From the sequence record MT446414.1: a stretch of 64,000 bases of DNA, one strand, 5' to 3'. Below, one piece after another: positions 2,777 to 48,629 of the stretch. The translations under genes and the position numbers were made by a program. The stretch comes from Escherichia virus TH43. A model generated the notes under the pieces. That model was not told the origin of the DNA. It saw nothing but the letters and a program-made list of their open reading frames with translations, and searched no databases. Numbering within the stretch: the first letter of the stretch is position 1; each line of letters opens with the position of its first letter.

Positions 2777-5700
2777 ACTCTTTAGCTCGAACTCTAACCC
2801 GGAGTTTAGCTTGACGCTTACTTCTCTCCAACTTGTCAGACAGAGAACCACGTTTGACTTTCAACTCTCCCTCGTCATTATACTTCTCCAAGAACTGTAA
2901 ATACTCTTGTCGAGTAGTTGTCTTGTAAGAAGGAATCTTAACATCAGGATTCTCTTCAATCACACGTCTAATCTTCGCTACATCATCCCGCCCTAAAAGT
3001 TTCCCTTTAGCTTGTTCAGCAGTAGAACCAAAGATTTTCTCCAGTGCTCTAGATTTGTTACCACCCGCTGAAGCAGCACCAAGTTTCGCAATAGCAGAGT
3101 AATCGTCAGCACTAAACCAAGCCACTGGATTATCTCCATATTGTTTCTTGTTCTCCGCAGCAGTTTGTAAAGCACGCACAAAGCGACGGTTATTACCAGC
3201 TTTGTCAGCACCATGAACCCTATCTAGAACTTCTGCTACACTAGCCAGCTCCTGCAAGTCTTTCCCTTCGATAAAAGCTTTCTCTGCTTTGTTAGCAAAG
3301 TCATCTTCCTGCTTCTTAATACTTTCCAGTATATCAGAGGAGGCTTGAGACCTTTCATCTTCCGGCAACGCCGAACGAACTTTCTCCATTTCCAACTCTT
3401 CATCCTGAAGTTTCTTCAACTCAGAATCTACCTTCCTAGCATCTTCGATAGCTTTCGAAGTATCTGCATCCACCTCTACCTTCCCATCCATATCACCAGT
3501 TGCCTTAGCAATATCTTTCTCGATTGGTGTCATCTTCTCAAAATCCTTAGCAAACTTTGAAATATCCGATTCAATACGAGAACGAGCATTCTGGTGCTCA
3601 GTAGGAGTCATAGGTTTCTCCAGAAGAGAGTAACGGTTATCCATATAAGAACCTGCAAAGATTTCTGCATCTTCTTTAGGAATCCCTTTATCCTCCATAG
3701 AACGCATCAGGCGCTTATGAATGTCATCACGTTGGCGTTGTATTGCCATGCGATCGTTCTCTGCTTCCTGAGCTTCTTTGAGCTTCTTGTCACGTTGTAC
3801 ACGGGAATCAATGTCGTATTTACGGTTCATCTCTTCCGCCTGTTCGTACATCTTATTCCACTTAGCTTCTCGAGCATCTTCTTCCGCTTCAGTGAGACGA
3901 CGCTTACGGTCAATGTAATCACTTTCTGCGTTGTGGATACGTTCGATAATACTACGGAAACGCTCCGGTGGCACAGGAGAGTTCTTATCGTGGTGAGCTG
4001 CTAACTGTTTCAGTGTACGACCTTCCTGAGACTCACGTACCGACTCTGGTAAATCTTTCAACAGGTTCTCCATCTCCGATTTCTGAGCCGCTATAGCTTC
4101 GAGAGACTGTCTTTCTGTCTCTACTGCTGCCTTGGCATCACTACGAGCTTTAGCCCTGTTACGGAGCGTCTCAAGACGTTCTTGACGTGCTTGCAAATGT
4201 TTAGCTGCTGCTTCGTACTGAGAGTTCTTATTAGCTTTGTTGAACATGTTAACTTCACGGTTATATGTGTTAATGAAGCCATCCCATATATCCTTCATCT
4301 GTCCCACTTCCAAAGCATCTTCCCTTCCAGCCTTCTCTGAAGCTTTAAACTTCCCATCTACAAAGTCTTCCATCAACTTACGCATAGCATCTTTTTGAGC
4401 TGGACGTAATGGCTCTGCATCAAGAAGTAAATTGATTTCGCTGTGTAACTCTTTCTTCTGGTCAACCAGCTTAGGAGCATCAGCTTTATCAAGCTTCTTA
4501 TTCTCTGCAAGAGCTTCTTCATACATCCTATTAAATTCATCATCACGTTGTTTCTGATACAGACGTTCAGACCTACGCTTCAGTGAGTCTAGACTAGTCA
4601 CGTTCCCACCAATACCTTTCTCCTCAGCACGTAATGCCTTGGTAGCAATATCAGAAGGTAGACCACGTTCCTTAACCCAATCAGCAAACGAAGAACGAAC
4701 ACGTTGTGACTTAGCAGCAGCAATACCCTGTTGAGAAGCAAGTTGGTTACGAGCCATCTCAGCATGACGTTCAGCATTGTTGGCTTGGTCTTCCTGACGG
4801 ATACGACGCATCAACTCTTTCGGGTCACCTTTATAAGAAAGGAAGTTCTCAGCTGTGGCTTTAGCCTTAGCACCTGCCGTATACAGAGAACGAGCAAAGC
4901 GATCTGCACGATCTTTAGTAGCTTGACGGGCAGCACTTGACATAGCAGCCAGACGCTCTATTCCAGTAGCTGGTTTAACAGGCTCAGGCTCAACCTCAGG
5001 AGCTTTAGGAGCACGGGTAGGTAATGGCTCGGCTTGAACGATAGGCTCCTCAGGAACGCTCTCAGCAGCCTTGCTAGCCTCTTCTGCTTCTTGACGTTTA
5101 CGAGCTTCTGCAACAGCACGACGCTGAGCAACTAAATCCCTTGCGGTAGTAACTGGTTCTTGTGGAACTGGCTCTGGAGTTGGTTCTTCCTGAACCCTGT
5201 TAGCTTCGGCTTCTTGACGTCTAGCTTCAGCTTCCTTCAAAGCACGTCTCTGTGCGACCAAATCACGAGCAGTTAAAGGAGAGGTTTCTGGAGAGGAAAT
5301 TTCTTCCGTCACAGTAGTAGCAGAAGGCTCCCGAACCGGTTCGATTTCCGTGTCATTTTGAGTCTTAAATTTAATGTCATCAACTTCAGGTTCTTTCTCC
5401 ATCGCAGCACGGGCTTCATCAGCCTGAGCACGAGCACGAGTTACTTCCATATCACTACGAGCAAGAGAACGAATAGCTTCACTGTTAGCAGCCTGCTGGC
5501 TTTCACGTTGAGAGCGAGCACGGTCAGAACGGAAACGGTTAAGAACATGCTTAGCAGCACCAAGAGGATTCTTAATCAGAACTGGAGGAGCAGCTTCTTT
5601 AAAACCATCAGCAGTCAGAGAAGTCCAACCACGGTCTTGGTTACTCATTAACTTAGCTGTGTTATTCAGAGTGAAAGCATCTTGGATTGGGTTGAAACCT

Positions 5701-7193
5701 TCAGGCATTCCTTTAAGTTTCTTCAAACCACCAATAGCAGTTTTCATTTCTGGAGATACATTATCAGCCAGTTTCTGAAGCTCTGTAGCTTTCTCTATGA
5801 AGTTATTAAAGTCTTCACCATCACGAGCTTTGAATCGATTAGCTTCGTTATAGAAAGTTTTATAAGCATCAATGAAATCACGATCTGCTTGGGTACGATT
5901 CTTAATGTCCATAGCACTACCAGTAAAATCACCACTGGCACGAGCAGCTGTTAATTCACGATCAAGGTTATCCAGAACATCAGACAAAGATTTAGTGTTG
6001 TCTTTTGTATAATCAGCCATTGCATCTTTCATTGCCACAGCTTGTTTCTGGTTATGTTCGTTGTCTGCGTTAGCTTTACCTTGCTTCTTATTAGGAGCAG
6101 CAAGAGGATTTAAACCCGGAACATTAGAACGATCTTCCAGAATAGTAGCAGCCTTCTCGGCACGACTTTGATCAGTATTAAGGATACGCTGAGCAGCAGG
6201 AGAGTCCATAGCCACAGCATCAGTAACACGGAAACCGTTCTCATCGAGGAGATTAAGAGCAGAAGCTGTGTTAGCGTTATCAGCTTTAGAGTAAGCCTCT
6301 CTTAGTTCGTCTGCATTTTTAGCTGAGCGAATAGCTTCATCTTCAGCGGCAATGTCAGTCTTAACGTGTTCTGGAGTACGGTCAAAGACTTGAGGACTAG
6401 GACGACTTATCAATCCATGAACCCCACCAATAGCCCCACCGTAAGCAGCACCCATCGCACCTTCTTCTACAGCACCTTCAATGATATTAGCAAGAGTAGT
6501 GTCATCACCATATTTGTTCTGTGCTTCAGCAGCACCTACAAGAGCACCACCTTTAGCACCAGCCACTGCGTTAGATGCTACACTCTGACCAACACGACCT
6601 AGGGTAGTAGAAGCAGTGCCTGTCATCCCCGGAAGAATCTTCTGAGCTGCAAAGTTAGCACCACCAACTAAACCAGCATCAAGAACAGACTTCTCTTCAC
6701 CCTCTTCTGGAGTTTGGTCTGCATAAGCTCTACCTGTTTCACGAGCTGCAATAACAGCAGCAGCTACAGCTGGGTTAGCAACCGTAAGACCAATATCAGC
6801 GGCAACGCCAGCATACTGACCTACAGATTTACCTACACCATCTTCGATTTGAGAGAGACGTTCTTCTAGTAAGTTTTTAGAGTTGTCTTGAATACGCTTA
6901 CCGTAACTTGTCTGTGTACCAGCTAGATTTTCTCCAATCTCAACTAATCCACCAATACCTCTAGCAGCACTGGCTGCAATGTTTGCACCACCTGATTGAA
7001 TAGCGTTGGACACACCTTGGGCAAAATCACCAACCAACCCCGGTTGCTCTTCTTGTTTAGGAGCTGGAGCAGCCTCAGGAATCGTTCCACCCGCTGCTTT
7101 ATACTGTTCTCGCATCTGAGACTGTTGCTCAGGGGAGGCATTCAAATACGCAGGGCTTTTAGAAGCTTCTTCCCACGGTTTTAAGTTCGCCAT
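2775..7193 (-). CDS. large virion protein, 1472 aa (tape-measure-like or internal ejection protein)
   Basis: Very long Ala/Glu/Lys/Arg-rich coiled-coil-type protein with internal tandem repeat (ARDLVAQRRA... twice); last gene of the structural operon. Confidence 0.6.
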   Translation of the reverse strand: MANLKPWEEASKSPAYLNASPEQQSQMREQYKAAGGTIPEAAPAPKQEEQPGLVGDFAQGVSNAIQSGGANIAASAARGIGGLVEIGENLAGTQTSYGKRIQDNSKNLLEERLSQIEDGVGKSVGQYAGVAADIGLTVANPAVAAAVIAARETGRAYADQTPEEGEEKSVLDAGLVGGANFAAQKILPGMTGTASTTLGRVGQSVASNAVAGAKGGALVGAAEAQNKYGDDTTLANIIEGAVEEGAMGAAYGGAIGGVHGLISRPSPQVFDRTPEHVKTDIAAEDEAIRSAKNADELREAYSKADNANTASALNLLDENGFRVTDAVAMDSPAAQRILNTDQSRAEKAATILEDRSNVPGLNPLAAPNKKQGKANADNEHNQKQAVAMKDAMADYTKDNTKSLSDVLDNLDRELTAARASGDFTGSAMDIKNRTQADRDFIDAYKTFYNEANRFKARDGEDFNNFIEKATELQKLADNVSPEMKTAIGGLKKLKGMPEGFNPIQDAFTLNNTAKLMSNQDRGWTSLTADGFKEAAPPVLIKNPLGAAKHVLNRFRSDRARSQRESQQAANSEAIRSLARSDMEVTRARAQADEARAAMEKEPEVDDIKFKTQNDTEIEPVREPSATTVTEEISSPETSPLTARDLVAQRRALKEAEARRQEAEANRVQEEPTPEPVPQEPVTTARDLVAQRRAVAEARKRQEAEEASKAAESVPEEPIVQAEPLPTRAPKAPEVEPEPVKPATGIERLAAMSSAARQATKDRADRFARSLYTAGAKAKATAENFLSYKGDPKELMRRIRQEDQANNAERHAEMARNQLASQQGIAAAKSQRVRSSFADWVKERGLPSDIATKALRAEEKGIGGNVTSLDSLKRRSERLYQKQRDDEFNRMYEEALAENKKLDKADAPKLVDQKKELHSEINLLLDAEPLRPAQKDAMRKLMEDFVDGKFKASEKAGREDALEVGQMKDIWDGFINTYNREVNMFNKANKNSQYEAAAKHLQARQERLETLRNRAKARSDAKAAVETERQSLEAIAAQKSEMENLLKDLPESVRESQEGRTLKQLAAHHDKNSPVPPERFRSIIERIHNAESDYIDRKRRLTEAEEDAREAKWNKMYEQAEEMNRKYDIDSRVQRDKKLKEAQEAENDRMAIQRQRDDIHKRLMRSMEDKGIPKEDAEIFAGSYMDNRYSLLEKPMTPTEHQNARSRIESDISKFAKDFEKMTPIEKDIAKATGDMDGKVEVDADTSKAIEDARKVDSELKKLQDEELEMEKVRSALPEDERSQASSDILESIKKQEDDFANKAEKAFIEGKDLQELASVAEVLDRVHGADKAGNNRRFVRALQTAAENKKQYGDNPVAWFSADDYSAIAKLGAASAGGNKSRALEKIFGSTAEQAKGKLLGRDDVAKIRRVIEENPDVKIPSYKTTTRQEYLQFLEKYNDEGELKVKRGSLSDKLERSKRQAKLRVRVRAKE

Positions 7194-7258
7194 AATTTCT
7201 CCTTATAAATAAAAATGTCCTACCTCCTATATACATTATAAGAGATAGGACTTAGGTC

Positions 7259-11751: not shown

Positions 11752-12783
11752 TTATAGACCCGCAAAAACTTTAGCCGCATTTATTACCGGAATTGATATA
11801 TTAATGGCAGAGTTAGAACCTAGGTCATAATTGGTAGACCACTGGAACATATACCTACCATAGCCAGTACCTATAGAAGATCCTGTCATTACATGAGATC
11901 TCATTTGCTGATAGTACCAACCACTACCACTACCCCGAATAGCACCTACACCAGAGGAGAGTGGTATCATTGGGTATGCCATACCAGTATCACCTCCAGC
12001 AGAACCTACAAAATTATCAACAGTAAAAGGTGTTCTATTAGTAGAGAACACACACTGAGTTGTTCCGGGAGAATAAATATTTAATCCACCATTGTGCTCA
12101 GGAACTCCTGCTCCATTACAGAATACTGCGACCCTAGCAAATACAGAACCGCCTTCGTTAGAGTTTCCGTTATTATAAGATCTGTTCTGATATACACGGA
12201 TCACTCTATCTCCAGATGTATAAGAAAGGCCAACCCCTCCGTCAGACCAGTTAGCAAAGACTACAGCATTAGGCATATAAAACCCACCAATGTCAGGAAT
12301 CTGTAAAGCGCCGTTTATAGTCCCTTGCCAAGCCCAAATACACTGACCAACAACACCAGCATCAGAGATAGAGAAGTAATCAGCTGTATTAGAGAAGGTA
12401 ATACCATAATTTCTGTCAGCTCTTGGGTAGATTTGGTAAACGTTAAACCCACAATCAAACAGGGGGTTACTTCCGGGATTCTGGTTTAAGTTAACTCTGA
12501 AAGAGGAGTTATTCTCTACATAAATGTTATTAACACAATAAACATCAGGAACCAAGTTAGGAGGAACTTCCCACTGCCAGCACAGAGACCCAGTAGGGAC
12601 GATAATTATCTGACCGCTACCATCCCAACCATTAATAGGGAAAGATCTCCCACCCCCGTTAAAGTTGAAACTCCCACTAATAGAGTTCTTAATCTGAGGG
12701 AATGTACTCCCACTATCAATAAACAAAGGAGCCGGAGAGGCTGGCCCCGGTCCTACAGGTTGACACCATATTCCATATGCCAT
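11752..12783 (-). CDS. structural protein (tail-associated), 343 aa
   Basis: ORF in the tail module; no specific motif. Confidence 0.45.
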   Translation of the reverse strand: MAYGIWCQPVGPGPASPAPLFIDSGSTFPQIKNSISGSFNFNGGGRSFPINGWDGSGQIIIVPTGSLCWQWEVPPNLVPDVYCVNNIYVENNSSFRVNLNQNPGSNPLFDCGFNVYQIYPRADRNYGITFSNTADYFSISDAGVVGQCIWAWQGTINGALQIPDIGGFYMPNAVVFANWSDGGVGLSYTSGDRVIRVYQNRSYNNGNSNEGGSVFARVAVFCNGAGVPEHNGGLNIYSPGTTQCVFSTNRTPFTVDNFVGSAGGDTGMAYPMIPLSSGVGAIRGSGSGWYYQQMRSHVMTGSSIGTGYGRYMFQWSTNYDLGSNSAINISIPVINAAKVFAGL

Positions 12784-12784
12784 A

Positions 12785-13807
12785 TTACCAACTCCCTATT
12801 CTAATTCTCAAAGCACCACCACCGTCATAGAAATCAATCCTGTTACCATTCATCCACAGCTGTGCCCCACCTGTACCACCCATAACAAAATCCCCACCAA
12901 CTGTAAGTCTCCAGTTAGAACCACTCATAGAGCCAGCAGTAATCTTGTTAGCAGTAAGGTTAGCAATCTGTCCATCTTGAATCCACACGTTATCAATCTG
13001 AGCAAACTGGATTCGAGCATTAGCAATCTGAGCAGTTGTAATGTTGACATTCTTGATATCAGCGAATTCCATTCTAGCTCTACCACCTTCAAAAACAAAA
13101 GGAGTATTACCAGAGTTGCCATCACCAACAATAAACTTATTAGCCGTTACTTGGAATTGGCTGTTCGTGCCGTTGTTAGTTAGTTTAACACCAGCGTACT
13201 GACCATTAACAGAAGAGTTGACACCCCATGTAGCTTCGTAACTATCTAGTCTCATGTATTGAGAAAGAGAGTTCTGTACAGTAGTAACCTTACCATCCAC
13301 TTCGGCAATCTGAGTACCTTGAGCAGTAAGTTCTGTCTGAACTAAAGCAATCTCTTGTCCTTGTTCATTCACAATACCTTGTACTGTCTGAATCTTTAAA
13401 TCATTACCTTCAATAGAAGTTTTGAAACCTGCAACTGTACCATCTAGTTTAGTCGGAGGGTTAGTGCTTCTATCCCAAATATCTTCAGTAGAAAGATTAC
13501 CCATCTGTGTTTGGATATCAGCAATAGCTGTTTCAATCTCTGTAGTAATTCGGTTCTCAAGTTCATCAAACTGTAGGTTCATTGCATTAAGAGCTTTAAT
13601 ACGAACATCTATCTCTTCATGAATCTCGTCGATTGCTTGGAACATCTGGTTAGTTGCTGTACTGACTTTCTGTAATTCATCATAAACTGCAACGTTGTAT
13701 TTATCCGTATCCTCTACATTGTTTAGAAACCCAACGTTGTAGGGAAGTGTGGTGTTGTTTCTTCCAGTATTCTTACGAAAACCTCCAGCACCCATAAGTA
13801 CCTCCAA
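12785..13807 (-). CDS. tail fibre-like protein, 340 aa
   Basis: N-terminal coiled-coil segment followed by Gly/Asn-rich C-terminal region; tail-module position. Confidence 0.45.
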   Translation of the reverse strand: MEVLMGAGGFRKNTGRNNTTLPYNVGFLNNVEDTDKYNVAVYDELQKVSTATNQMFQAIDEIHEEIDVRIKALNAMNLQFDELENRITTEIETAIADIQTQMGNLSTEDIWDRSTNPPTKLDGTVAGFKTSIEGNDLKIQTVQGIVNEQGQEIALVQTELTAQGTQIAEVDGKVTTVQNSLSQYMRLDSYEATWGVNSSVNGQYAGVKLTNNGTNSQFQVTANKFIVGDGNSGNTPFVFEGGRARMEFADIKNVNITTAQIANARIQFAQIDNVWIQDGQIANLTANKITAGSMSGSNWRLTVGGDFVMGGTGGAQLWMNGNRIDFYDGGGALRIRIGSW

Positions 13808-13844
13808 TTATAAACAATAAAAGGGAGCCGAAGCTCCCTAGTTG

Positions 13845-16800
13845 TTATCTTCGACCGCCAACAGCAAACTCTATGGTTAAACCATTCATAGACGCATTAC
13901 TGTTAACATCATTATCTATAACATTATAGAATAGGTATGGATGGTTCAGTCTGACTGCTACGTGACGATCTACACCAACCCTAAACTCTTTAGTAGAATG
14001 GTTGTGTCCATACTCGTTAGAGAATTGACTACCACCTGCTTCAAAAGTATAAGTCCCTGTTCCTGTTACTTGAGGTCTAAATCGGTTAATGTGTTTCTGA
14101 TTCCATTCATTAGTGACGTTATCAAAATCAATCCCCGTTCTCTCTAGTCTCATTTCCAGAGGCTTCTCTATAACCACATCATTTGTTCTGTCATAGATAT
14201 AATCCAAAGCTCCTATATCAACTTGGTAGAATCCTTTCAAGAAAGAACCTATGATTGTAACTCTCTGACGGAAGTTAGTTGCATCTTTTCTCCACACCAG
14301 TTTGTCAATCGAAGGGTCATCCCAAGTGATCTCTTGGAAATCAGCCCAGATAGGACCACGTTCCAGAACCGGAGGATCAACCAGACCAATACAGTAAGAG
14401 TAAGGAATCGTACGGAAAGACCAAGTATCGAACTCATAATTCCATACTGCTGCTTTAGTACAGGCAAAACTTTCCTTAGGCTCACCCGGACCTACATAAA
14501 GAACCCATACTTCTTTCTTATCCTGATGAAGATGAACTCGTGTAGCAATTGGGTTCACCAGACAAATCTCATTAATGAGCATGTTCTTCACTCGGTTAGA
14601 AGCAATAGATTTCTTAGAAGCACCATTGTGCAGAATGACGTCGTTCTGAGTTACCACAAAGTGACCACCTTCAACTTCCACCACACACTCAGGAGCAAGT
14701 ATCCCTGAATCATTAAACAGCTTTTTAAACATCAAAGGCTGATATGTGTTGTTAGTAGGAGAGCCGATATAAGTTTCAAACTCAGTGTAAACGAACAGAT
14801 AATCTTTCAGAGGAAGAACATCTAACAAACTACCATTAGAGTCAGCCAAATCAATATATCCTGCATAACCATTCTCAAGAGCTTCTGTCTGTCCTACGAT
14901 GTTAGCTGCTAGGTCAGAACTCACTGCTCGGTCATATGCATAATCATCCCAAAGCTGAGGGGCTTTGTTTTCCTCTGCAAAGTTAGACCAACGCAAACGA
15001 AGAGGGTAGTGAGTAGTAACACCAGAGGCATTAGACTCTCTCATATTCAGAGCAAACAGTCTATTGTTAAAAGCTCTCACTCGTTCACATTTCCAGTTAT
15101 ACTTCTTAACAGAAGGATTACCATCTGCATCAACAACCGTCTGCTCACCCCATCCCGGAAGGTCAGTGAAGTATTCAGAATCGAATTCCTTAACCTGAGG
15201 AGTTTCGTAGTGAGTAGTTGCTACTGCACAGTTAGAGATGATCGCATGATACCAAGGATAATCTTCAAACGCATCATAGTCTTTCTGAACCATCTGGCTT
15301 ACAGTACAAGTCACTTTAACCTCACCCTTACGAATAGCAGTAAGTTTCAAAGTTGAGTTAGTTGTAGAAGTAGTAGAAACATAACCACTCTTATCAACTG
15401 TCCACTTGTAAGTATAGCTTCCAGTAGGAGATGCTGTAGCTGTGATAACAATCTCTTCACCTACATCAAGAGAGGCATCAATAACATCAAGAGTAACTCC
15501 AGTCAAAGGTGGATCATTAGCAAGCATTGCTGCTCTACCAAAACCTTCCAAGTCCATGACGTTAGAGTAGTCGTAGAAGTTGTTTCCTTCCGCCATCCCT
15601 GTTGTATCAATGCCAATTGTATCAGCGTCAAAATAAGTAACTTCTTCTGACTCAACAATTGGTTCTTCTACAGGAGCTTCTGTAGTGATAGTCATTGCTG
15701 ACATAGCCCTACTTGCCAGACGAGAAGATAAATCAACACGTACAGTACAAACTGCTGAACGACCTCCTTCCGCTGTAACTGCTGTAATCTCTGTATACCC
15801 CGCAAGCAATCCAGTTATTGTAGCTTCTGTACCTGTACCACTTACTGTAGCAATGTTGGTGTTAGAAGAAGTCCAAGTGATCGTTTGGTTGGGTGCGTTA
15901 GCTGGACTAACTGTTGCAGTTAAGATGTACTGAGTACCACGACTCATTTGAATATCTGTCTGACTTAATGTGATGCTATCAATTTGAGGTATTGCTGTTA
16001 CTGTACAAGATGCAGTCTTTGTTCCATTATCAGCAGTTATAGTTACCTGTCCTTCTCCAAGAGCTGTAAGAACAACTGTCTTTGTATTAGCATTAGGAGA
16101 AACAGAAACTAAGGATGGGTTAGAGGAAGACCAAGTTACAGACGGTTTGCCTGTAATTGCTGTAAGGGTTGATGTACCACCTTTACGCACAGTCAAAGTG
16201 TCTTGGCTCAAATAGATACCTGAATCACTATCAAGGATGTTAACTGCAATCTGAGCTGAGATAGATTCATCAGATGTGCTCACTGTCACAACTAAATTAC
16301 CTTCAACAGACTTAGAAGTTAGGGTAGCCTTCTTGGAGTCAGTAGGGTCAACTTCAATACTACCATAAGAAGAGTTGCTTACTTCCCAAACTAGATTAGC
16401 ATTTTGAGCATCTGTAGGGGTGACTTCAACTTCGAGAATCTTGGTCTGGTTAAAATTCATAGATACAGAAGTCTCTTTAGGAACAATATTTGAGACTACT
16501 GGATAAATCTTAATTGTCGCTGATGCTTTCTTTGTCGCTGTAGCAACCTTACGGCTGATATCAGTTAAACTCTCGTCGGTAAGTTTATACAGTTTCTTAT
16601 CTGTACCTACCACAAGAAAGCTATTACCTGCGCTATAATAATCGAAAGGCATTGAAAGGAATGAGAGAGGAGTCAGATCTTTATCTTCGTCTACATAAGA
16701 AAGAGGGGCATTGCCCCCCGTCTTAAAGACTCTCTGCTCAACAAACCGAGCATTAATAGCGTTAGTGAAAGCATTTGGTGCTAAGTCAGTAGGTGCTTGG

Positions 16801-16850
16801 TCAGCGATAACCCCAACTGCGCCTAGTGATTTAATTGGATAGAGAGCCAT
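13845..16850 (-). CDS. tail protein with Ig-like (Big_2-type) repeats, 1001 aa
   Basis: Repeated Thr/Ser/Val-rich ~80-aa segments resembling bacterial Ig-like domains. Confidence 0.55.
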   Translation of the reverse strand: MALYPIKSLGAVGVIADQAPTDLAPNAFTNAINARFVEQRVFKTGGNAPLSYVDEDKDLTPLSFLSMPFDYYSAGNSFLVVGTDKKLYKLTDESLTDISRKVATATKKASATIKIYPVVSNIVPKETSVSMNFNQTKILEVEVTPTDAQNANLVWEVSNSSYGSIEVDPTDSKKATLTSKSVEGNLVVTVSTSDESISAQIAVNILDSDSGIYLSQDTLTVRKGGTSTLTAITGKPSVTWSSSNPSLVSVSPNANTKTVVLTALGEGQVTITADNGTKTASCTVTAIPQIDSITLSQTDIQMSRGTQYILTATVSPANAPNQTITWTSSNTNIATVSGTGTEATITGLLAGYTEITAVTAEGGRSAVCTVRVDLSSRLASRAMSAMTITTEAPVEEPIVESEEVTYFDADTIGIDTTGMAEGNNFYDYSNVMDLEGFGRAAMLANDPPLTGVTLDVIDASLDVGEEIVITATASPTGSYTYKWTVDKSGYVSTTSTTNSTLKLTAIRKGEVKVTCTVSQMVQKDYDAFEDYPWYHAIISNCAVATTHYETPQVKEFDSEYFTDLPGWGEQTVVDADGNPSVKKYNWKCERVRAFNNRLFALNMRESNASGVTTHYPLRLRWSNFAEENKAPQLWDDYAYDRAVSSDLAANIVGQTEALENGYAGYIDLADSNGSLLDVLPLKDYLFVYTEFETYIGSPTNNTYQPLMFKKLFNDSGILAPECVVEVEGGHFVVTQNDVILHNGASKKSIASNRVKNMLINEICLVNPIATRVHLHQDKKEVWVLYVGPGEPKESFACTKAAVWNYEFDTWSFRTIPYSYCIGLVDPPVLERGPIWADFQEITWDDPSIDKLVWRKDATNFRQRVTIIGSFLKGFYQVDIGALDYIYDRTNDVVIEKPLEMRLERTGIDFDNVTNEWNQKHINRFRPQVTGTGTYTFEAGGSQFSNEYGHNHSTKEFRVGVDRHVAVRLNHPYLFYNVIDNDVNSNASMNGLTIEFAVGGRR

Positions 16851-16859
16851 GCTACCTCC

Positions 16860-17663
16860 TTAGCTAATACGTCTCCAAATATGTGCTGCTCGGAATGGCG
16901 GTAATGTGTTGATAGGCTGACGAGAAATGTCATCATAACCAAAACTAACAGAACCTGAGATTGAGTGTGAGTGAGTGTTTGTGTCAGTTACTTGAGTATA
17001 ACCACCACCCGGACTATACCAGTTAGGGCTGCTGTTATGACCACTAGCATCCCCTCGGCCCATCGTAATGTTATGTGCGTGAGAGTAGGAGCTAACTTGG
17101 AAACTAGAACCATTGATTGTAGTTAGAGGCATATTCTCAGTACGAACTGTATTAAACACACGACCACCTGTACCGCCTGCTTGGAACTCAACACGCTGGG
17201 CGTTAGGAACAGACCCATCGGGGTTGACAACACCAGTACCCATAACAACACCAGTAACTTTAGCCCAAGAGCCAAAGCCGAGAGAGCTAGAATCACCGGG
17301 GTTGATATCTTCTTCAGTGATGTAGTAAGCACCAATACGATACAGCTTGTTCTGCATCCAATTCAACATGAAAGCTTCCATCTGACCTTTGGTTACAGCG
17401 TCTTTATCACCAGTGCCCGGAGTCAGGTTTTTAATCATCAGATTACCAACATCCATAGCATCGCCAGTAAAAGTGATTTTCTCTGACAAAGCCTTAAAAG
17501 ATTCAGAAGAAAGGTTCACTGGTTCAGTAATGTTAGGGAATGTGTTAATCAAGACTTGTTTGATAAGGCGGAGTTGAGCCGCCCCTTCATAAATATAATC
17601 CCTGTCACGAGGGTACAGGGGGTTTAAATCGGTAGTGACTACCGCTGTAGTTTCAATAGCCAA
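16860..17663 (-). CDS. tail fibre / collar-domain protein
   Basis: Gly-rich C-terminal half with SLGFGSWAK and NTLPPFRAAHIW, reminiscent of tail-collar domains. Confidence 0.45.
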   Translation of the reverse strand: MAIETTAVVTTDLNPLYPRDRDYIYEGAAQLRLIKQVLINTFPNITEPVNLSSESFKALSEKITFTGDAMDVGNLMIKNLTPGTGDKDAVTKGQMEAFMLNWMQNKLYRIGAYYITEEDINPGDSSSLGFGSWAKVTGVVMGTGVVNPDGSVPNAQRVEFQAGGTGGRVFNTVRTENMPLTTINGSSFQVSSYSHAHNITMGRGDASGHNSSPNWYSPGGGYTQVTDTNTHSHSISGSVSFGYDDISRQPINTLPPFRAAHIWRRIS

Positions 17664-33252: not shown

Positions 33253-33282
33253 TTTTATATCTCCTCTGATAAACGAGAGTGG

Positions 33283-34410
33283 CTAACCCATAAAGGCGTA
33301 TTCATCTAAAGGCCCACCCATGTATGAACCCATGTACGCTGATGTAAAGGGGACTCTATAAAGGCATACCCATAAAGGCCATGTCACATTAAGGCCACCT
33401 CATACCCATGAGCATGTCTCCACTCTACTTCATAATCCTCTTCGGTGAAGCTACCGTAGTCTTCTTCAGTCATGTTAAGGCCTATCCACCCATTTACTAT
33501 TCCTCACCTTACCACAGTCTGCACATCTCCATGTACTCTTGTAATAAGCGTGTAATCGTTCATCACCTCTTGATATCCGGATTGGATAGTACTCGTGATT
33601 ACATTTGAATTGCTTAACTAGTAACTTAATCTTCCACATAAAGTTGTTCCTCACTCTTAAATCCACAACTAACGTTGGGGCATATAGTTATATATAAGGG
33701 TTTTAAATTCTGATTTGACCGAGTGGACCTAGCCCCTCCGAGCGCGTTTCCTAAAAAGGGGGAGTCCTCATTTAAAAAAGGGTTATTACCAATGCAATTG
33801 CCTTTAGGAAATCAATCAGCCTTTAAGCTCTAAGCCTTGCCCTACCTGCTATCAGTGGCATGCCTACCCATAAATACCCTACCCATTAATATAAGCCATC
33901 TATTTAATACCCATGTATATCTAACCAGTGATTTCCTACCCGTATTTCTCTTACTCATATTGAGAAGGGATGAAAGGCTAGACTCTGATGCACTGTTAAG
34001 GGGTTATAATAAGAGGGCTAATAGTAAGGGCTATTATAGTAAGGTTAGTGATGGTAACACCATGCAATTATATCAATCCTCACACTACCCCACGTTTAAT
34101 AGTAATAACCTATGTTAATGTTTCATGAGTGGATTATTGATGTATGTATCATTAGACTGGAAGTAATAACTTTCTTTTATTATTCTCTTTTAATCTTTTC
34201 TTTTTCAGCGTGCTGTTGGTCTTTTTCTTTTGTTGTTTGAGTAAATTATTTGACTGGTAATTAACTCCCGCATGGTCTGGTCTGTCATCTGTAACTAACT
34301 TACATTATACCCTACCCGTTTCCCCTTCCTCGTTAGGCTTCTTACCCATTGGCTAACCTATGCGGCACGTTCTACCCATCTGTCGTTGCCGTTGGTCTGC
34401 TACCCGTTCT
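33283..34410. repeat. array of about 13 short ACCC[AG]T-core motifs in the divergent control region
   Basis: Repeated CTACCCAT / CTACCCGT / ACCCATAAAGG copies around 33285, 33316, 33329, 33368, 33404, 33867, 33880, 33910, 33938, 34312, 34343, 34374, 34401. Confidence 0.6.
33475..33666 (-). CDS. small Cys-rich (zinc-ribbon-like) protein
   Basis: CNHEY ... CADCGK spacing suggests a zinc ribbon. Confidence 0.3.
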   Translation of the reverse strand: MDLRVRNNFMWKIKLLVKQFKCNHEYYPIRISRGDERLHAYYKSTWRCADCGKVRNSKWVDRP

Positions 34411-37117: not shown

Positions 37118-37192
37118 TTTATCGTCTTGCCCTTTCGCAAAGATTCACGCGAGATAAGGGAAGAGAACAAAAAGAAGACGATAAAAAAAGAG

Positions 37193-37220
37193 TTGACAAG
37201 GTGAAACGTTCTGATAGAAT
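37193..37220 (+). promoter_or_regulatory. strong sigma70-like early promoter P2
   Basis: TTGACA (37193-37198), 16-nt spacer, TAGAAT (37215-37220); A-rich tract upstream. Confidence 0.6.
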
Positions 37221-37243
37221 GTTCACTAAGCAGTAAGAAACAC

Positions 37244-37256
37244 CGCTCTTTAAAAA
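37244..37256 (+). promoter_or_regulatory. boxA-like antitermination element (copy 2)
   Basis: CGCTCTTTAAAAA about 25 nt downstream of the P2 -10. Confidence 0.5.
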
Positions 37257-37360
37257 TATGAATCAGAAAGTTAAGCGCAACCGCTTACAATCTTGTTAAT
37301 CCAATACGTGATTAACTGGTCATTCGAAAGAATAGACGAGAAAAAGATTTAAAAAAGTGG

Positions 37361-37389
37361 TTGACACGCTAAACAGGATGATTCATAAT
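37361..37389 (+). promoter_or_regulatory. strong sigma70-like early promoter P3
   Basis: TTGACA (37361-37366), 17-nt spacer, CATAAT (37384-37389); A-rich tract upstream. Confidence 0.6.
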
Positions 37390-37478
37390 GAGCACTCACT
37401 AAGCAAATCACCGCGAAGTGAACAGCGTAACAACGGCTAACAGTTGCATAGTGTGAGAAAGCACACTGATAGATTTAC

Positions 37479-37491
37479 CGCTCTTTAACAA
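37479..37491 (+). promoter_or_regulatory. boxA-like antitermination element (copy 3)
   Basis: CGCTCTTTAACAA followed by TTTA matches the rrn boxA consensus as recalled; preceded by hairpin GTGTGagaaagCACAC (37451-37466). Confidence 0.6.
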
Positions 37492-38305
37492 TTTAAACAT
37501 TCTCCTATATCGGTTGAATATGCTAGATGATAATAACCATCGGATAGCATACCAGATAAAACGGTGTAAGATTCTCTAAGTTATCAGAGTAAACAATCTC
37601 ACAATCCCTTACTGGAAACGTCACCACTGATAAGCAGATTCATCGAGTGCACGCAAAGACTTAAGCTAATCGCCCACGGTTAAGGGTAGCGGCGGTCATC
37701 GCTAACAAGGCGCTACGGTGAAAGAAGTTAATCAGGGTAGACAAGCCCGACTAATTAACGCTCAATTGAGAGCGGCGGGGAGTGGTTAAAAAGTGGCAAA
37801 TTGCTATTTAACAATAAGGTTTAGTGTGAACGTTTACGAAGTGAATGATTTGAGGCCACTATTGATGGCGTACATAATCAGTTTATGTAGTAAACCTGCT
37901 GAAAGATATAAAACGTCAATGTATCAGGCGGCTAATGACTCTTTCGCAATAACCTCCCGTAGTGGGCGATGGTTAGCGATTGAGAGTTGGTATAAAAGGA
38001 TAGGCGGGAGCGAAAGCAAAGTAAACGATATTACCGACGGTTACAATAAAGTAACTAATTAGAGTCGGGCACACTGCCTTATTGTGATGATTGATCATCG
38101 CTATCAGGTCGGCTTCGTTTATAGCGACTAATTAAAGATACCAGATGAAACATCACGGATAATGGGGCGGCTAGGTTAACTCCTGATAAGACCGCCCCAC
38201 TTACCTATAACTACTTAATAACGAGCGGTTATAGTTAAGTCATTGTGACTTGAATAGCTCATAGAGAGCGGCGCATAGAGCGTTTCAATTAAAAGGTAAA
38301 TTATC

Positions 38306-41695: not shown

Positions 41696-41855
41696 GTTCA
41701 CCACTGGTCACACTGTTCGCCTTGTTGGCGGTACTCAAACAGGTGTTATTCGTCGGAGAACAACGATTGATGGTGTTCTCTGTTATCTTGTTCAGTGGAA
41801 TGGTGAATCCTCTCCTTCCTTCGAACGTCGTACTGATTTGGTGTTAATCAAATGA
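41664..41855 (+). CDS. small SH3/KOW-like protein
   Basis: HTVRLVGGTQTGVIRRRT ... YLVQWNG pattern; start uncertain (ATG 41664 or 41679). Confidence 0.35.
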   Translation: MRKQRMRSRVKFTTGHTVRLVGGTQTGVIRRRTTIDGVLCYLVQWNGESSPSFERRTDLVLIK

Positions 41856-42082
41856 AAATTAATCTCCCATCTTTAGTTGTTACTAAAAAGCTCAGCGATC
41901 TACGTCCGGGTGATGTATTCCGTCTACCAACTAACTCTGAACACCTCTATCTAAAGACAGACACCTGCCTGAATGATATGCATCGTGTGGTTGGTCTTCG
42001 TCAGGGAACACTATTCCAGTTACAGGAACATCATGAAGTTATCCCTGTATTTGATGTTCAAGTGACTAATATTGGTGGTTAA
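41852..42082 (+). CDS. small protein, PGDVF-motif family member 1
   Basis: LSDLRPGDVFRL motif; ATGA overlap with upstream gene. Confidence 0.5.
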   Translation: MKINLPSLVVTKKLSDLRPGDVFRLPTNSEHLYLKTDTCLNDMHRVVGLRQGTLFQLQEHHEVIPVFDVQVTNIGG

Positions 42083-42307
42083 ATGAAGATTGACATTGAT
42101 AGTACGCCAGAGGTTGTAACTCTCGGAGACCTAAATCCGGGTGAAGTCTTCCAGTTTAACTACAATGAAACTCAATACTACATGCGTACTGCGTGTTATG
42201 GTGAAAACAAAAGTTATTTTGTTAACCTTTATACAGGTAAGCGTGATTCTGAGTGTAAATCGACTGTAGTCAGACCTGTACCTAACGCACAACTAACCAA
42301 CAAGTAA
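42083..42307 (+). CDS. small protein, PGDVF-motif family member 2
   Basis: LGDLNPGEVFQF motif; tandem to member 1. Confidence 0.5.
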   Translation: MKIDIDSTPEVVTLGDLNPGEVFQFNYNETQYYMRTACYGENKSYFVNLYTGKRDSECKSTVVRPVPNAQLTNK

Positions 42308-42431
42308 CATCGACTTATAGCCCTTGTGCTTATCAGAGGGCTATGTGAGGATGTTCCTCAATTAACTATAATCTCAATGCCATATGGCTCACCGCTAGGG
42401 CGAGACTTGTCTCAAACATCCGGTGATAGAC
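42308..42431 (+). repeat. conserved structured intergenic element, copy A
   Basis: Hairpin ATAGCCCT-12nt-AGGGCTAT (42317-42344), then GCTAGGG and second hairpin GAGAC..GTCTC, then AACATCCGgtGATAG; near-identical copy at 48221. Confidence 0.6.
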
Positions 42432-42609
42432 TAAAACCTGTTAATTTTCGAATGGCATTCCGATATGTAGGGGTATGTATCGGTTTGGGATAGAGAACAA
42501 TCTAGGGGTAGAAAGTTCTCGACAGTTTGTACAAGCGGAAGCCTTAACGTGTAGGGCTTCCCTTTATATTAACTGGCAATCCTGCCTCCATTAACAAAGA
42601 GAGAACGTT

Positions 42610-42750
42610 ATGAAAAAGACAACCAAACGTATGAACCGTCCTGAACGTATGGATGCAGTAGCAAATGGTGCTCTGAAGATTGAGTCTGCCATGCTCCGTC
42701 TGACAACTAACATCCGTAAACGTCAGGGTGATTGGTTCTATGGCGGCTGA
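42610..42750 (+). CDS. small basic ORF, 46 aa
   Basis: ATG with AGAGAG upstream; below the track length cutoff. Confidence 0.3.
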   Translation: MKKTTKRMNRPERMDAVANGALKIESAMLRLTTNIRKRQGDWFYGG

Positions 42751-42943: not shown

Positions 42944-42949
42944 ATAAGA

Positions 42950-42980
42950 GGCTGCCCTTCGGGGTGGCCTTTGTTGTTTT
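42950..42980 (+). terminator. intrinsic terminator
   Basis: GGCTGCCC ttcg GGGTGGCC followed by TTTGTTGTTTT. Confidence 0.55.
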
Positions 42981-44337: not shown

Positions 44338-44760
44338 TTGAAGATAGAGTTAGAATACCCCTTCGTTAATGACTGGCGATTGGGCTACTTAAGAACAAGC
44401 AGAGACGGTAGGAAGCGTGTTGATTTGTATAATACCGACACGGAGAGGACAACCATTTCTTACGCAAGATATTTAATGTCTTGTCACATAGGCAGGTACC
44501 TAACTGAAGACGAGGAGGTTGATCATATTGACAGAAATAAAACTAATGATGACATATCTAATCTTCAGATACTTTCCATAGAAAATCACAGAAAGAAGTC
44601 AACATTAGAAGCAACTACTGGAAGAACAATGATTTCAGTTGTTTGCTCTTATTGTGGAAGATCTTTTGAAAAAGAAAAGCGAAATGTTAAATATGCAAAT
44701 TCTTTTTGTAACAGATCATGTGCAGGTAAGTATAACGGTTTCAAATCTATCGGGGCGTAG
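44338..44760 (+). CDS. HNH homing endonuclease
   Basis: EVDHIDRNKTNDDISNLQILSIENHRKK is a classic HNH core, plus C-terminal CxxC ... C...C; TTG start with GGAGGGG upstream. Confidence 0.65.
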   Translation: MKIELEYPFVNDWRLGYLRTSRDGRKRVDLYNTDTERTTISYARYLMSCHIGRYLTEDEEVDHIDRNKTNDDISNLQILSIENHRKKSTLEATTGRTMISVVCSYCGRSFEKEKRNVKYANSFCNRSCAGKYNGFKSIGA

Positions 44761-44826
44761 TCTAGTGGAACAGGCAGCGAGCTTCTAACTCGCCTTACGA
44801 GGGTTCGAATCCTTCCGTCCCGACCA
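44751..44826 (+). tRNA. tRNA-Arg (anticodon UCU)
   Basis: Manual cloverleaf: acceptor CGGGGCG/CGTCCCG, D-arm GTCT-AGTGGAAC-AGGC, anticodon arm GCGAG-CTTCTAA-CTCGC, T-arm GAGGG-TTCGAAT-CCTTC, discriminator A, encoded CCA; 76 nt. Confidence 0.8.
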
Positions 44827-47293: not shown

Positions 47294-47707
47294 ATGGCTG
47301 GGAAACTCCCCAACGTAAGCAAGAAATTGGCCTACCTCACGTATAAAGAAAACATTGATCTTCTGGTCAAGCTTTATCCGGCTTCATTCAACAAGCAATT
47401 CCCTCTTCCTTTGGAGCTTAACATCCATAAGGAAATAGCCCGTAAGACCGGTTGGTCAGCGGAGAAAACAAGCATGGTGCTCAACATCTGGACTACTCGT
47501 ATGGAGTATGTGATGATGGCCTGTAGCACTGGTAAACGCTTCAAGCTGCACTCTGTAGCTATGAAGATTCGTAGTCCTATTGACCCTGAGCCAATGGCTG
47601 GGTTCAGCAGCCGTCTGAAATCTTTCCGTGATCGTGGTCGTGTAGTGAAGTTTAAGCACGACTTCTCTTATAAGTTTGGATACGAAGCGTTCCAATTCGT
47701 TGTTTAA
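47294..47707 (+). CDS. FinO/ProQ-like RNA-binding protein
   Basis: LYPASFNKQFPLPLELNIHKEIA ... LNIWTT ... GKRFKLHS parallels the ProQ N-terminal FinO-domain pattern; GGAG upstream of ATG. Confidence 0.5.
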   Translation: MAGKLPNVSKKLAYLTYKENIDLLVKLYPASFNKQFPLPLELNIHKEIARKTGWSAEKTSMVLNIWTTRMEYVMMACSTGKRFKLHSVAMKIRSPIDPEPMAGFSSRLKSFRDRGRVVKFKHDFSYKFGYEAFQFVV

Positions 47708-47735: not shown

Positions 47736-47969
47736 ATGTCTAAAGTTAGCGCAATTGATGCCATCCGCCAGCCGTTCCAGTTCCAGTCCAAATCAACCCA
47801 AACCTTCAGCGAACCTCGCCAGATTCGTCTGGGCGGCACAGAGAAATCTGTGTTTGATATTGCGAAAAATAAAAGCGTGACCATCGTCGAAGGTGGTGAG
47901 CTGGTTAATGTTTCCCATCGTATCCGCACTGGTAAAACTGCCAAAGATCGTGCTAAGAAAGGTCTGTAA
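47736..47969 (+). CDS. hypothetical protein, 77 aa
   Basis: ATG with AAGGTAA upstream. Confidence 0.45.
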   Translation: MSKVSAIDAIRQPFQFQSKSTQTFSEPRQIRLGGTEKSVFDIAKNKSVTIVEGGELVNVSHRIRTGKTAKDRAKKGL

Positions 47970-48220
47970 TGCAAATTGCTAATAAAACCCCTCCTGAATC
48001 AATTATCCAAGTAAAGGATATGTCACCGGGAGATGTATTTCGTGCAACGGAATATCCGGGGGATTTCTTTATTCGAATCCCCTCAGCATCTGTTGGTGGT
48101 ATCGCTAAACCGGTAACAGCAGTTCAGCTAAGTACGGGTCATCTCTTCCGTTTAGAGATTGATATGATTGTGATTCCTGTTCCAACAGCAATCCTCCGCT
48201 TCGACGGAGCCACAGAGTAA
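47969..48220 (+). CDS. small protein, PGDVF-motif family member 6
   Basis: VKDMSPGDVFRA motif; followed by repeat copy B, as member 2 is followed by copy A. Confidence 0.5.
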   Translation: MQIANKTPPESIIQVKDMSPGDVFRATEYPGDFFIRIPSASVGGIAKPVTAVQLSTGHLFRLEIDMIVIPVPTAILRFDGATE

Positions 48221-48354
48221 CATCTATAGCCCTTGTGAGTATCAGAGGGCTATGTGAGCTATTCTGGCTCAACTAACCTAAACTTAATTTAATCTTACCC
48301 GTATGGGGCCGATGCTAGGGAGAGGAACAGTCCTCGAACATCCGTCGGATAGAA
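48221..48354 (+). repeat. conserved structured intergenic element, copy B
   Basis: Hairpin ATAGCCCT-12nt-AGGGCTAT (48226-48253) nearly identical to copy A; second hairpin GAGGA..TCCTC covaries with GAGAC..GTCTC of copy A. Confidence 0.6.
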
Positions 48355-48461
48355 TATTTTAAGAGCAGGTTATCCACAGATATTGGGTGATATCTATTTA
48401 ATTGGCCTTAAAGCTTGGCTCTCTTAGGAGAGTCCTTTTTTAAGTTCAAAGAAGAGGTTGT

Positions 48462-48629
48462 ATGGATAATAAGTTGAAAGTTAAGTTCTTATTGGCAGCA
48501 ATCTTTATTTGCTTAGCCACCGTGGGGTTTGCCCGTGTGACTTCCTTTGTATCTTGTGAATTAAGCAAGAACAACAGAGGGTCTTATAACTGGCTTACCA
48601 ATCAATGTGATAAACAGGAGAAGTTATGA
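48462..48629 (+). CDS. small secreted protein, 55 aa
   Basis: Signal-peptide-like N-terminus; GAAGAGG upstream; ATGA-type overlap with next gene. Confidence 0.35.
   Translation: MDNKLKVKFLLAAIFICLATVGFARVTSFVSCELSKNNRGSYNWLTNQCDKQEKL

Follow-up and report, generated by a model that had tools for sequence, protein, structure and literature searches.

Paired structured RNA modules in the early region of phiEco32-like phages, one with complementarity to the host nrdD leader

The early-gene region of the phage analysed here is a run of small + strand ORFs, and a non-coding element that follows one of them recurs about 5.9 kb further on, after another. What kind of element is kept in two copies, where does it end, and does it work as DNA or as RNA? 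We addressed these questions in the window (the whole 64,000-nt stretch of DNA), whose source was identified by megablast of both loci as a phiEco32-like podophage of E. coli (Suseptimavirus/Kuravirus, Gordonclarkvirinae) with HC-25922, MLP3, NC-B, IME267, ECBP2 and Bas88 as nearest relatives. Virulent coliphages of this group are under development for therapy, yet no explanation exists for about 50 of their early genes or for any of their non-coding regions. No annotation or paper describing the two elements, here called A and B, was found, and the literature search on Kuravirus ncRNA or on sRNA regulation of nrdD returned nothing relevant. Judged from sequence comparison, A and B are probably phage regulatory RNAs acting on the host.

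Two related modules in the early-gene region

The proposed duplication was confirmed: exactly two copies lie in the window, and a third was not found there. They share a 34-nt block (TATAGCCCTTGTGNNTATCAGAGGGCTATGTGAG; 42316-42349 and 48225-48258), for which 100 shuffles gave 0 matches, and the string GCTAGGG...AACATCCG (42394-42422 in A, 48314-48344 in B), also found 0 times in shuffles. The covariance-model search suggested as a check was performed with a model built from A copies alone, and it retrieved only A and B, both in the window and in the near-complete Bas88. The copies had been described as beginning at the stop codon; they do adjoin the upstream gene (TAA at 42305-42307 for A and at 48218-48220 for B), but precisely they begin a few bases past the stop. 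In every copy the first hairpin, H1, starts 4-8 nt past the stop codon, which itself lies within the conserved block. The H1 loop differs between A and B at two positions (CT vs AG) and not at the one first reported; the near-identity of H1, correct for this phage, is limited to the Suseptimavirus clade, phiEco32-type copy B having a shorter hairpin 1 capped by a cUUCGg or similar loop.

The end originally placed at 42431 was too early, as homology runs on through another G-loop hairpin to terminator-type hairpins that close both copies (Table 1). Module A is a structured RNA module of about 265 nt (42316-42571, + strand), and the stretch first delimited as copy A (42308-42431) covers only its 5' scaffold, the part shared with B. 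Module B is a paralogue of about 225 nt (48225-48441, + strand) that ends in a canonical terminator. The remark that the element has no U-tract and is not a terminator holds within 42308-42431, but the module proceeds to a terminal hairpin. The following genes start at 42610 after A and at 48462 after B.

Table 1. Features of modules A and B, in window coordinates
Feature	Position	Strand	Description
A-H1	42316-42345	+	10-bp hairpin UAUAGCCCUU/GAGGGCUAUG, 10-nt loop, 8 nt past the stop of 42083-42307
A-H2	42346-42360	+	6-bp hairpin UGAGGA-ugu-UCCUCA
A linker	42361-42378	+	A/U-rich
A-H3	42379-42388	+	small hairpin GCC-auau-GGC
A-P4	42390-42425	+	outer stem CACCG/CGGUG, 7+7 internal loop CUAGGGC/AAACAUC, inner hairpin GAGA-cuug-UCUC
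A-specific segment	42426-42459	+	34 nt between P4 and H6, AUAGACUAAAACCUGUUAAUUUUCGAAUGGCAUUC
A-H6	42460-42483	+	10-bp hairpin, GGGG loop; 98.8% paired
A-H7	42493-42520	+	10-bp hairpin, loop UAGGGGUA; missing from B
A-H8	42537-42571	+	terminal G+C-rich hairpin, then CUUUAUAUU (weak U-tract, 5 U in 8); end of module A
B-H1 and B-H2	48225-48271	+	B-H2 is UGAGC-uauucug-GCUCA
B-P3, 5' strand	48274-48287	+	UAACCU ... CUUAA, pairs with 48359-48372
B-H3	48298-48307	+	
B-P4	48309-48348	+	internal loop CUAGGGA/GAACAUC; inner hairpin GAGGA-acag-UCCUC
B putative effector segment	48354-48387	+	34 nt antisense to the E. coli nrdD leader; includes UUAUCCACA
B-H6	48379-48394	+	6-bp hairpin, loop GGGU
B intrinsic terminator	48417-48441	+	7-bp stem, then U6; complete as an intrinsic terminator

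The two modules diverge past P4. The A-specific segment occupies the place of the nrdD-antisense segment of B; it opens with a conserved stretch, UAGACUAAAACCUGUUAAUUUUCG, and its 5' half is conserved among A copies while its 3' half is variable. The motif yUAGGG(G/C)U appears 4-5 times in A, in the 5' strand of the P4 internal loop and in the loops of H6, H7 and H8, every occurrence being in a loop or at a loop edge and conserved across A copies; B has fewer motifs of this type. A long-range helix, P3, encloses H3 and P4 in B and is well supported in B and in Salmonella phage 7-11, where it shows the compensatory pairing UCUUUU/AAAGA and was also predicted independently by MFE folding. In A, AAUUAAC at 42360-42366 may pair with GUUAAUU at 42440-42446 in the same way, a tentative assignment made by eye, and this pairing is not retained in phiEco32 itself.

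B-H1 of the Suseptimavirus clade (48225-48258) carries a long loop of A type, and phiEco32-type B (1209-1237 of the compared locus) a short cUUCGg hairpin. By sequence, A and B of the Suseptimavirus clade seem to have undergone gene conversion, and such exchange between copies would fit recombination as a by-product.

The protein-coding ORF at 42326-42493 (55 aa) was rejected as an explanation of the locus, since its frame is broken by 1-2 nt indels among A copies. Public records annotate small hypothetical proteins across module A, including Bas88_0102 and Bas88_0103; the modules are best annotated as RNA and not as the small ORFs presently called over copy A.

The genes 5' of A (42083-42307) and B (47969-48220) are distant paralogues (29% identity, E 2e-6), and the non-coding block is much better conserved than the small proteins encoded upstream. 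Together with 41852-42082 they belong to one paralogous family of small early proteins of 74-83 aa (PHROGs 16423, 9955 and 6570, which cross-match), two members of which precede the RNA modules. A recombination site that duplicated the flanking gene had also been proposed; this would be at most a by-product, as the same elements follow unrelated genes elsewhere. The upstream gene is swapped and the elements are kept in SU10, where B follows a membrane-protein gene, in LAMP, where A follows a homologue of gene 116, and in MN05. Because unrelated genes precede the same elements in other phages, each element is kept independently of its upstream gene. No alignment across phages was possible 5' of the stop codon, whereas the module itself reached 91-92% column-wise identity. 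The phages differ in which genes lie upstream of A and B and in those between them, yet the elements stay. Modules A and B are useful as conserved landmarks bracketing the hypervariable early region.

The window holds several other features. A tRNA-Arg(UCU) gene is located at 44751-44826. About 400 nt past module A, a strong intrinsic-terminator-like hairpin of 11 bp with a GTTGTTTT tail (42947-42972, + strand) is an additional stop signal within the early operon. An imperfect 41-nt direct repeat (GGCTAACCCATAAAGGC...; 33281-33321 and 33363-33403) has a spacing of 82 nt and is 71% identical. About 500 nt upstream of B, the product of the + strand gene 47294-47707, an early protein of 137 aa, matches the ProQ/FinO RNA-chaperone domain (PF04352, 27.2 bits vs a cut-off of 27). 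Suseptimavirus, 7-11-like, Erwinia phiEa21-4-like and Aeromonas phages have homologues, some of them annotated proQ. The gene was not found in phiEco32-type Kuraviruses, which carry both RNAs, and the ProQ-like protein is therefore not an obligatory partner of the RNAs.

The promoter scan detected no sigma-70-like site before copy A or B and no promoter between either terminal hairpin and the following gene. TATAAT at 42367-42372 was rejected as a promoter because it is absent from other A copies. For SU10, the genome paper places the promoters of the early genes far upstream, between CDS 120 and 121 (PMC4281155). The gp36 promoter motif tAATGTAtA has been reported only upstream of phiEco32 genes 6, 13, 26, 40, 58 and 68 (PMC4331800); A-H6 is alike at 7/9 positions, but it varies as a helix and was rejected as such a motif.

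Conservation among relatives and selection on RNA pairing

The prediction implied that related genomes should carry the element, and about 100 Kuravirus/Suseptimavirus records proved to contain both modules, which in phiEco32 come after gene 113 (A) and gene 91 (B). All contigs that a strict 26-base two-gap pattern retrieved from metagenomes and IMG/VR were Kuravirus-like; both copies occur in 16 stretches of metagenome and in 8 of IMG/VR, and the distinct instances numbered 32. A looser motif scan of IMG/VR had given almost only chance matches. Beyond these genera, the covariance model found one B-like copy in Salmonella phage 7-11 (Grimontviridae), syntenic with B (E 6e-5). It lies directly upstream of an annotated terminator and has the same architecture (fold z = -4.5). 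On the minus strand of 7-11, a 700-nt unannotated gap (37135-37845) is syntenic with copy A; it contains two tRNA-like T-arm/acceptor ends and a sub-threshold permuted tmRNA match (RF04321, 29.6 bits, E 4.5e-4), and ARAGORN reported nothing in it. No Rfam 15 family matches A or B, the only hit in the window to reach its gathering threshold being the tRNA-Arg (44751-44823). E-value Rfam scans of both copies gave sub-threshold terminator-like matches only, and ARAGORN reported one tRNA in the window and none at A or B.

The copies were aligned per type and with the covariance model, as a joint MAFFT alignment of A and B misplaced H2, P4 and H6. In 17 aligned A copies 97.5% of cells were paired and 5/48 pairs, in H3 and H7, had changed on both sides; in 15 B copies the figures were 100% and 1/52 (U-A/C-G in H2). 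The argument that selection acts on structure was upheld by the combined alignment of A, B and 7-11 (31 distinct rows), which was fitted to a covariance model that favours pairing: 99.5% of cells were paired and 10/27 pairs had changed on both sides. The covariation score of the combined alignment was 0.297, against 0.118 +/- 0.009 for shuffles (0/500 reached it) and at most 0.083 for slid partners. The hairpin singled out at first, GAGAC-tt-GTCTC in A versus GAGGA-acag-TCCTC in B, covaries as described, but covariation is not limited to it and is also present in H2, H3, the P4 outer stem, H6 and H7.

Individual helices show how pairing is kept. H1 is invariant among A copies; in B-H1, pair 8 varies as C-G/U.G/U-A and the apical part is replaced by cUUCGg-type loops in some copies. 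A-H2 shows A-U/G.U exchange within A, and its fifth pair is G-C in A vs C-G or U-A in B. H3 is compensatory, with GCC/GGC in this clade, GGC/GCC in phiEco32-type A and CCC/GGG in B. The P4 outer stem is CACCG/CGGUG in A, CCGAUG/CGUCGG in B and UUCGGUG/CGCCGAA in 7-11, and its internal loop CUAGGGN/NAACAUC (7+7, one variable base per strand) is kept in 31/31 distinct copies. In A-H6, four pairs change on one side and stay paired via G-U (CG/UG, GU/AU/GC, UG/UA/CG, GC/GU), and in A-H7, 4/10 pairs have changed on both sides among A copies. The stem sequence of A-H8 is clade-dependent and the hairpin itself is always there; the B terminator stem is kept through G.U/A-U and U.G/C-G changes.

Many positions in the helices of A and B are G.U or switch via G.U. 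Since these pairs would be A.C mismatches on the opposite strand, the + strand RNA is the selected form. MFE z-scores were -4.1 for A and -3.4 for B, and the cUUCGg loop is an RNA-specific tetraloop. Selection at the RNA level on + strand pairing is thus supported.

Complementarity of copy B to nrdD and the reading of the pair

When B was compared with 5,426 complete E. coli genomes, it matched one place per genome in 5423/5426, over 31-34 nt at 93.5-94% identity (E 4e-4 against 28 Gb). This place is the intergenic DNA directly upstream of nrdD, the gene of the anaerobic ribonucleoside-triphosphate reductase, on the strand opposite the gene. The B RNA is antisense to leader positions -44 to -11, stopping 1 nt before the GGAG Shine-Dalgarno, and the 34-nt duplex comprises 32 Watson-Crick pairs, 1 G.U and 1 mismatch. 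The segment is invariant in 15/15 distinct B copies. FNR and NrdR boxes lie at the same locus, 165-250 nt upstream of the nrdD ATG, in the arrangement given in PMC2892513; as these boxes lie further upstream, the target site would be within the transcribed leader.

Extended complementarity near a ribosome-binding site, as expected of a base-pairing sRNA, was found for B only and not for A, which, searched against all E. coli genomes, gave nothing of about 21 nt or longer. When A and B were compared with the transcripts of the phage itself, the longest complements were 11-13 nt, equal to those of shuffles, and the rest of the window contains no complement of the UAGGGGUA loops. A also has the octamer AACCUGUU, which is the sense sequence of the nrdD leader and complementary to B, a match that is possibly due to chance.

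The core of the B match, TGTGGATAA, is a perfect DnaA box. A comparison of leaders from 80 Enterobacterales species showed it to be conserved just upstream of the nrdD Shine-Dalgarno across the order; at least 60 leaders carry this same box upstream of nrdD, with species-specific flanks. Because of this core, part of the nrdD similarity could reflect a DNA-level site. The B segment also matches the E. coli-specific flanks, beyond the box conserved in other genera. The 7-11 copy retains AGGUUAUCCACAG, and 18 nt are pairable with the Salmonella leader (CUGUGGAUAACCUGUUCU, one G.U), the flanks not being pairable.

A DnaA-box motif of the nrdD leader, conserved order-wide and unreported, thereby also emerges from the analysis. 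Of the Enterobacterales examined, which range from Escherichia to Proteus and Yersinia, most have the box 15-25 nt 5' of the Shine-Dalgarno; the E. coli leader has a second DnaA box about 70 nt 5' of the first, and no account of nrdDG being under DnaA control was found. A candidate replication origin lies at the left genome end of the Crifsvirus ECO319P1, where 180 bp (310-490) contain five perfect TTATCCACA DnaA boxes.

An annotated ribonucleotide reductase is absent from Kuravirus/Suseptimavirus genomes and from phage 7-11. The Crifsviruses GAP52 and ECO319P1, relatives of the group, encode NrdD, and GAP52 also encodes NrdG; the element was not detected in either genome even with filters off. 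The complementary distribution of RNA element and phage NrdD fits a link to anaerobic dNTP supply, with a single lineage contrast behind it. The reductase loci are at 12156-17160 in GAP52, with a homing-endonuclease gene adjoining, and at 5090-7213 in ECO319P1.

In structure prediction, half of the B antisense segment is paired internally (in P3 and H6), with UCCAC left exposed; RNAduplex on the full-length RNAs was uninformative. In the predicted fold of the nrdD leader, the Shine-Dalgarno region is paired through its GGAGC to GUUCU, which belongs to the target. Pairing with B could consequently free the ribosome-binding site, although regulation might have either sign.

Of the candidates listed in the original prediction, a small RNA fits best. 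We propose, with about an even chance of being right, that A and B form a sibling pair of regulatory RNAs in phiEco32-like phages and that B base-pairs with host nrdD. Both would be made as + strand 3'UTRs of small early genes and would accumulate as discrete RNAs, and as there is no sigma-70-like promoter before either copy, their release would need processing of the early polycistronic transcript. The common scaffold (H1, H2, H3 and P4 with its conserved internal loop) could serve as a folding, stability or protein-docking platform, and the part past P4 as an effector that differs between the siblings. In B, the effector would be the 34-nt antisense beside the nrdD ribosome-binding site, followed by the canonical terminator, which is the layout of a base-pairing sRNA; its A/U-rich stretch, terminator and U6 look typical of Hfq binders. 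B may thus tune the host anaerobic ribonucleotide reductase, in either direction, and for phages that have no reductase of their own this host enzyme would be the dNTP supply in the gut. In A, the effector would consist of H6, H7 and H8, displaying UAGGG(G) loops, and the conserved single-stranded stretch, acting in trans on a partner RNA with a short seed or on a protein.

Several findings count against sibling regulatory RNAs: the weak U-tract at the terminal hairpin of A, the lack in A of detectable long complementarity to E. coli or phage transcripts, and the predicted self-pairing within the B antisense segment. The lack of a promoter before either copy, the DnaA-box core of the nrdD match, the association with the absence of phage nrdD and the model-fitted combined alignment, with the limits given above, belong here as well.

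The main rival is a cis-acting control of transcription elongation, in which the RNA modifies RNA polymerase or recruits factors (as in HK022 put and nut/boxA-boxB) or attenuates; we consider it unlikely. Early promoters lie far upstream (PMC4281155), and with no promoter after the terminal hairpins, transcription has to pass both of them (42537-42571 and 48417-48441) for the downstream early genes to be expressed. A long operon that holds the two copies, either one directly 5' of a terminator-type hairpin, would suit such control. Compared by eye, the H1 stem GCCCU/AGGGC is that of lambda boxB, and CUCAUUAAC after H2 is similar to boxA CUCUUUAAC. The lambda-type nut layout (boxA CGCUCUUUAACAA plus a boxB GNRA-like pentaloop) was nevertheless not found: the H1 loops (10 nt or UUCG) are not GNRA-like, and the best boxA-like string agrees, by eye, at 8/12 positions and lies partly inside H2. 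There is also no Rfam match and no evident antiterminator/terminator alternative pairing, and elongation control leaves the 34 nt of E. coli-specific nrdD leader antisense in B unexplained.

Roles in stability or processing, as a protein sponge and as DNA are each less likely than the sibling-RNA reading. Hairpins that shield the early mRNA or set RNase E/III cuts, with no function in trans, would explain why H1 lies so close to the stop codon in every copy and why A/U-rich single-stranded linkers separate stable hairpins. Simple stabilisers, however, need no conserved internal loop, single-stranded linkers or host-complementary segment, and the upstream gene is interchangeable. The RNase III site suggested originally is unlikely as well, since the longest supported helices are 10 bp, short of the roughly 20 bp or more of near-continuous duplex of a classic substrate. 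We regard a 3'UTR stability or processing element as improbable.

The yUAGGG(G/C)U loops, mainly of A, might instead titrate a phage or host RNA-binding protein. The repeated, conserved display of the motif in loops and the ProQ/FinO-domain gene near B speak for such a multi-site sponge. No known bacterial protein of such specificity was identified, however, the motif has GGG where CsrA sites have GGA, phiEco32-type phages with both elements lack the ProQ-like gene and B has fewer motifs, so that a sponge seems quite doubtful.

A DNA-level element, either a host-captured DnaA box with its flanks (B) or a homologous-recombination boundary shuffling early-gene cassettes in the manner of the T4 PeSL cassettes, is very improbable: although TTATCCACA at 48370-48378 is the perfect DnaA box conserved upstream of nrdD, gene content around A and B differs among phages and B-H1 looks converted to A type, selection for pairing in the + strand RNA is evident from the compensatory and G.U changes, the 64 kb hold one perfect DnaA box and no cluster, A has no box, no promoter accompanies the only two copies, and a 9-bp box cannot account for 34 invariant bases.

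Returning to sibling regulatory RNAs, a more elaborate form can be imagined, which we hold only tentatively and would not expect to be right in all its parts. A and B would belong to a scaffolded-RNA family with a conserved multi-helix platform and grafted effector cassettes; the B cassette would have been captured from, or evolved against, the host nrdD leader, allowing a phage that lacks a ribonucleotide reductase to reprogram the anaerobic dNTP supply of its host in the gut. Relatives that acquired nrdDG would have lost the RNA, and A would be a second effector built on the same platform, with a host partner of its own.

Comparison with known systems

Conserved non-coding blocks flanking hypervariable small early genes are known from the T4 PeSL cassettes, and A and B likewise show exchange between copies. 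A PeSL cassette consists of an early promoter and a stem-loop and is present in many copies, whereas neither A nor B has a promoter-like site, there are exactly two copies per genome, and selection acts on RNA structure. The likeness to the CsrB/RsmZ sponges is in layout only, since the loops carry UAGGG(G) and not GGA/ANGGA.

HK022 put and lambda/rrn nut also occur as two copies in early units, upstream of terminators, and their function is carried by folded nascent RNA; the equal boxB and H1 stems add to the likeness. The HK022 put site is an RNA of about 70 nt with two stems just past the early promoter that renders RNA polymerase terminator-resistant in cis, whereas A and B have no nearby promoter, their loops and boxA are off consensus and the module is 3-4 times larger; put and nut have no host-antisense sequence.

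Like 3'UTR-derived sRNAs of the CpxQ, SroC and RaiZ type, A and B lie directly past a stop codon and share the terminator of the mRNA, and like the sibling sRNAs OmrA/OmrB they are paralogous copies with common and divergent parts. These enterobacterial sRNAs are 50-120 nt with one or two hairpins, whereas A and B have 6-8 helices and a conserved internal loop.

The phage base-pairing sRNAs (lambda PreS/LPR1 on dnaN, and the prophage RNAs DicF and AsxR/AgvB) are likewise phage-encoded, and B further resembles them in its intrinsic terminator and its complementarity to a host leader near the ribosome-binding site. The lambda sRNA PreS raises translation of host dnaN (bioRxiv 10.1101/2024.10.31.621285). 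PreS on dnaN is the closest precedent for B on its predicted target nrdD, both targets being in DNA replication or precursor supply. Compared with these sRNAs, A and B are much longer (225-265 nt), more structured, embedded in 3'UTRs and without a promoter of their own; the antisense of B is 34 nt and not a short seed, and the two paralogues have a common scaffold. The RNA family, its scaffold-plus-cassette layout and the nrdD complementarity appear to be new, phage-encoded regulatory RNA being known as a kind. The conserved structured RNA pair, with a precise predicted host target in anaerobic dNTP synthesis for one of its members, would make host takeover at the RNA level by a strictly lytic phage open to direct testing.
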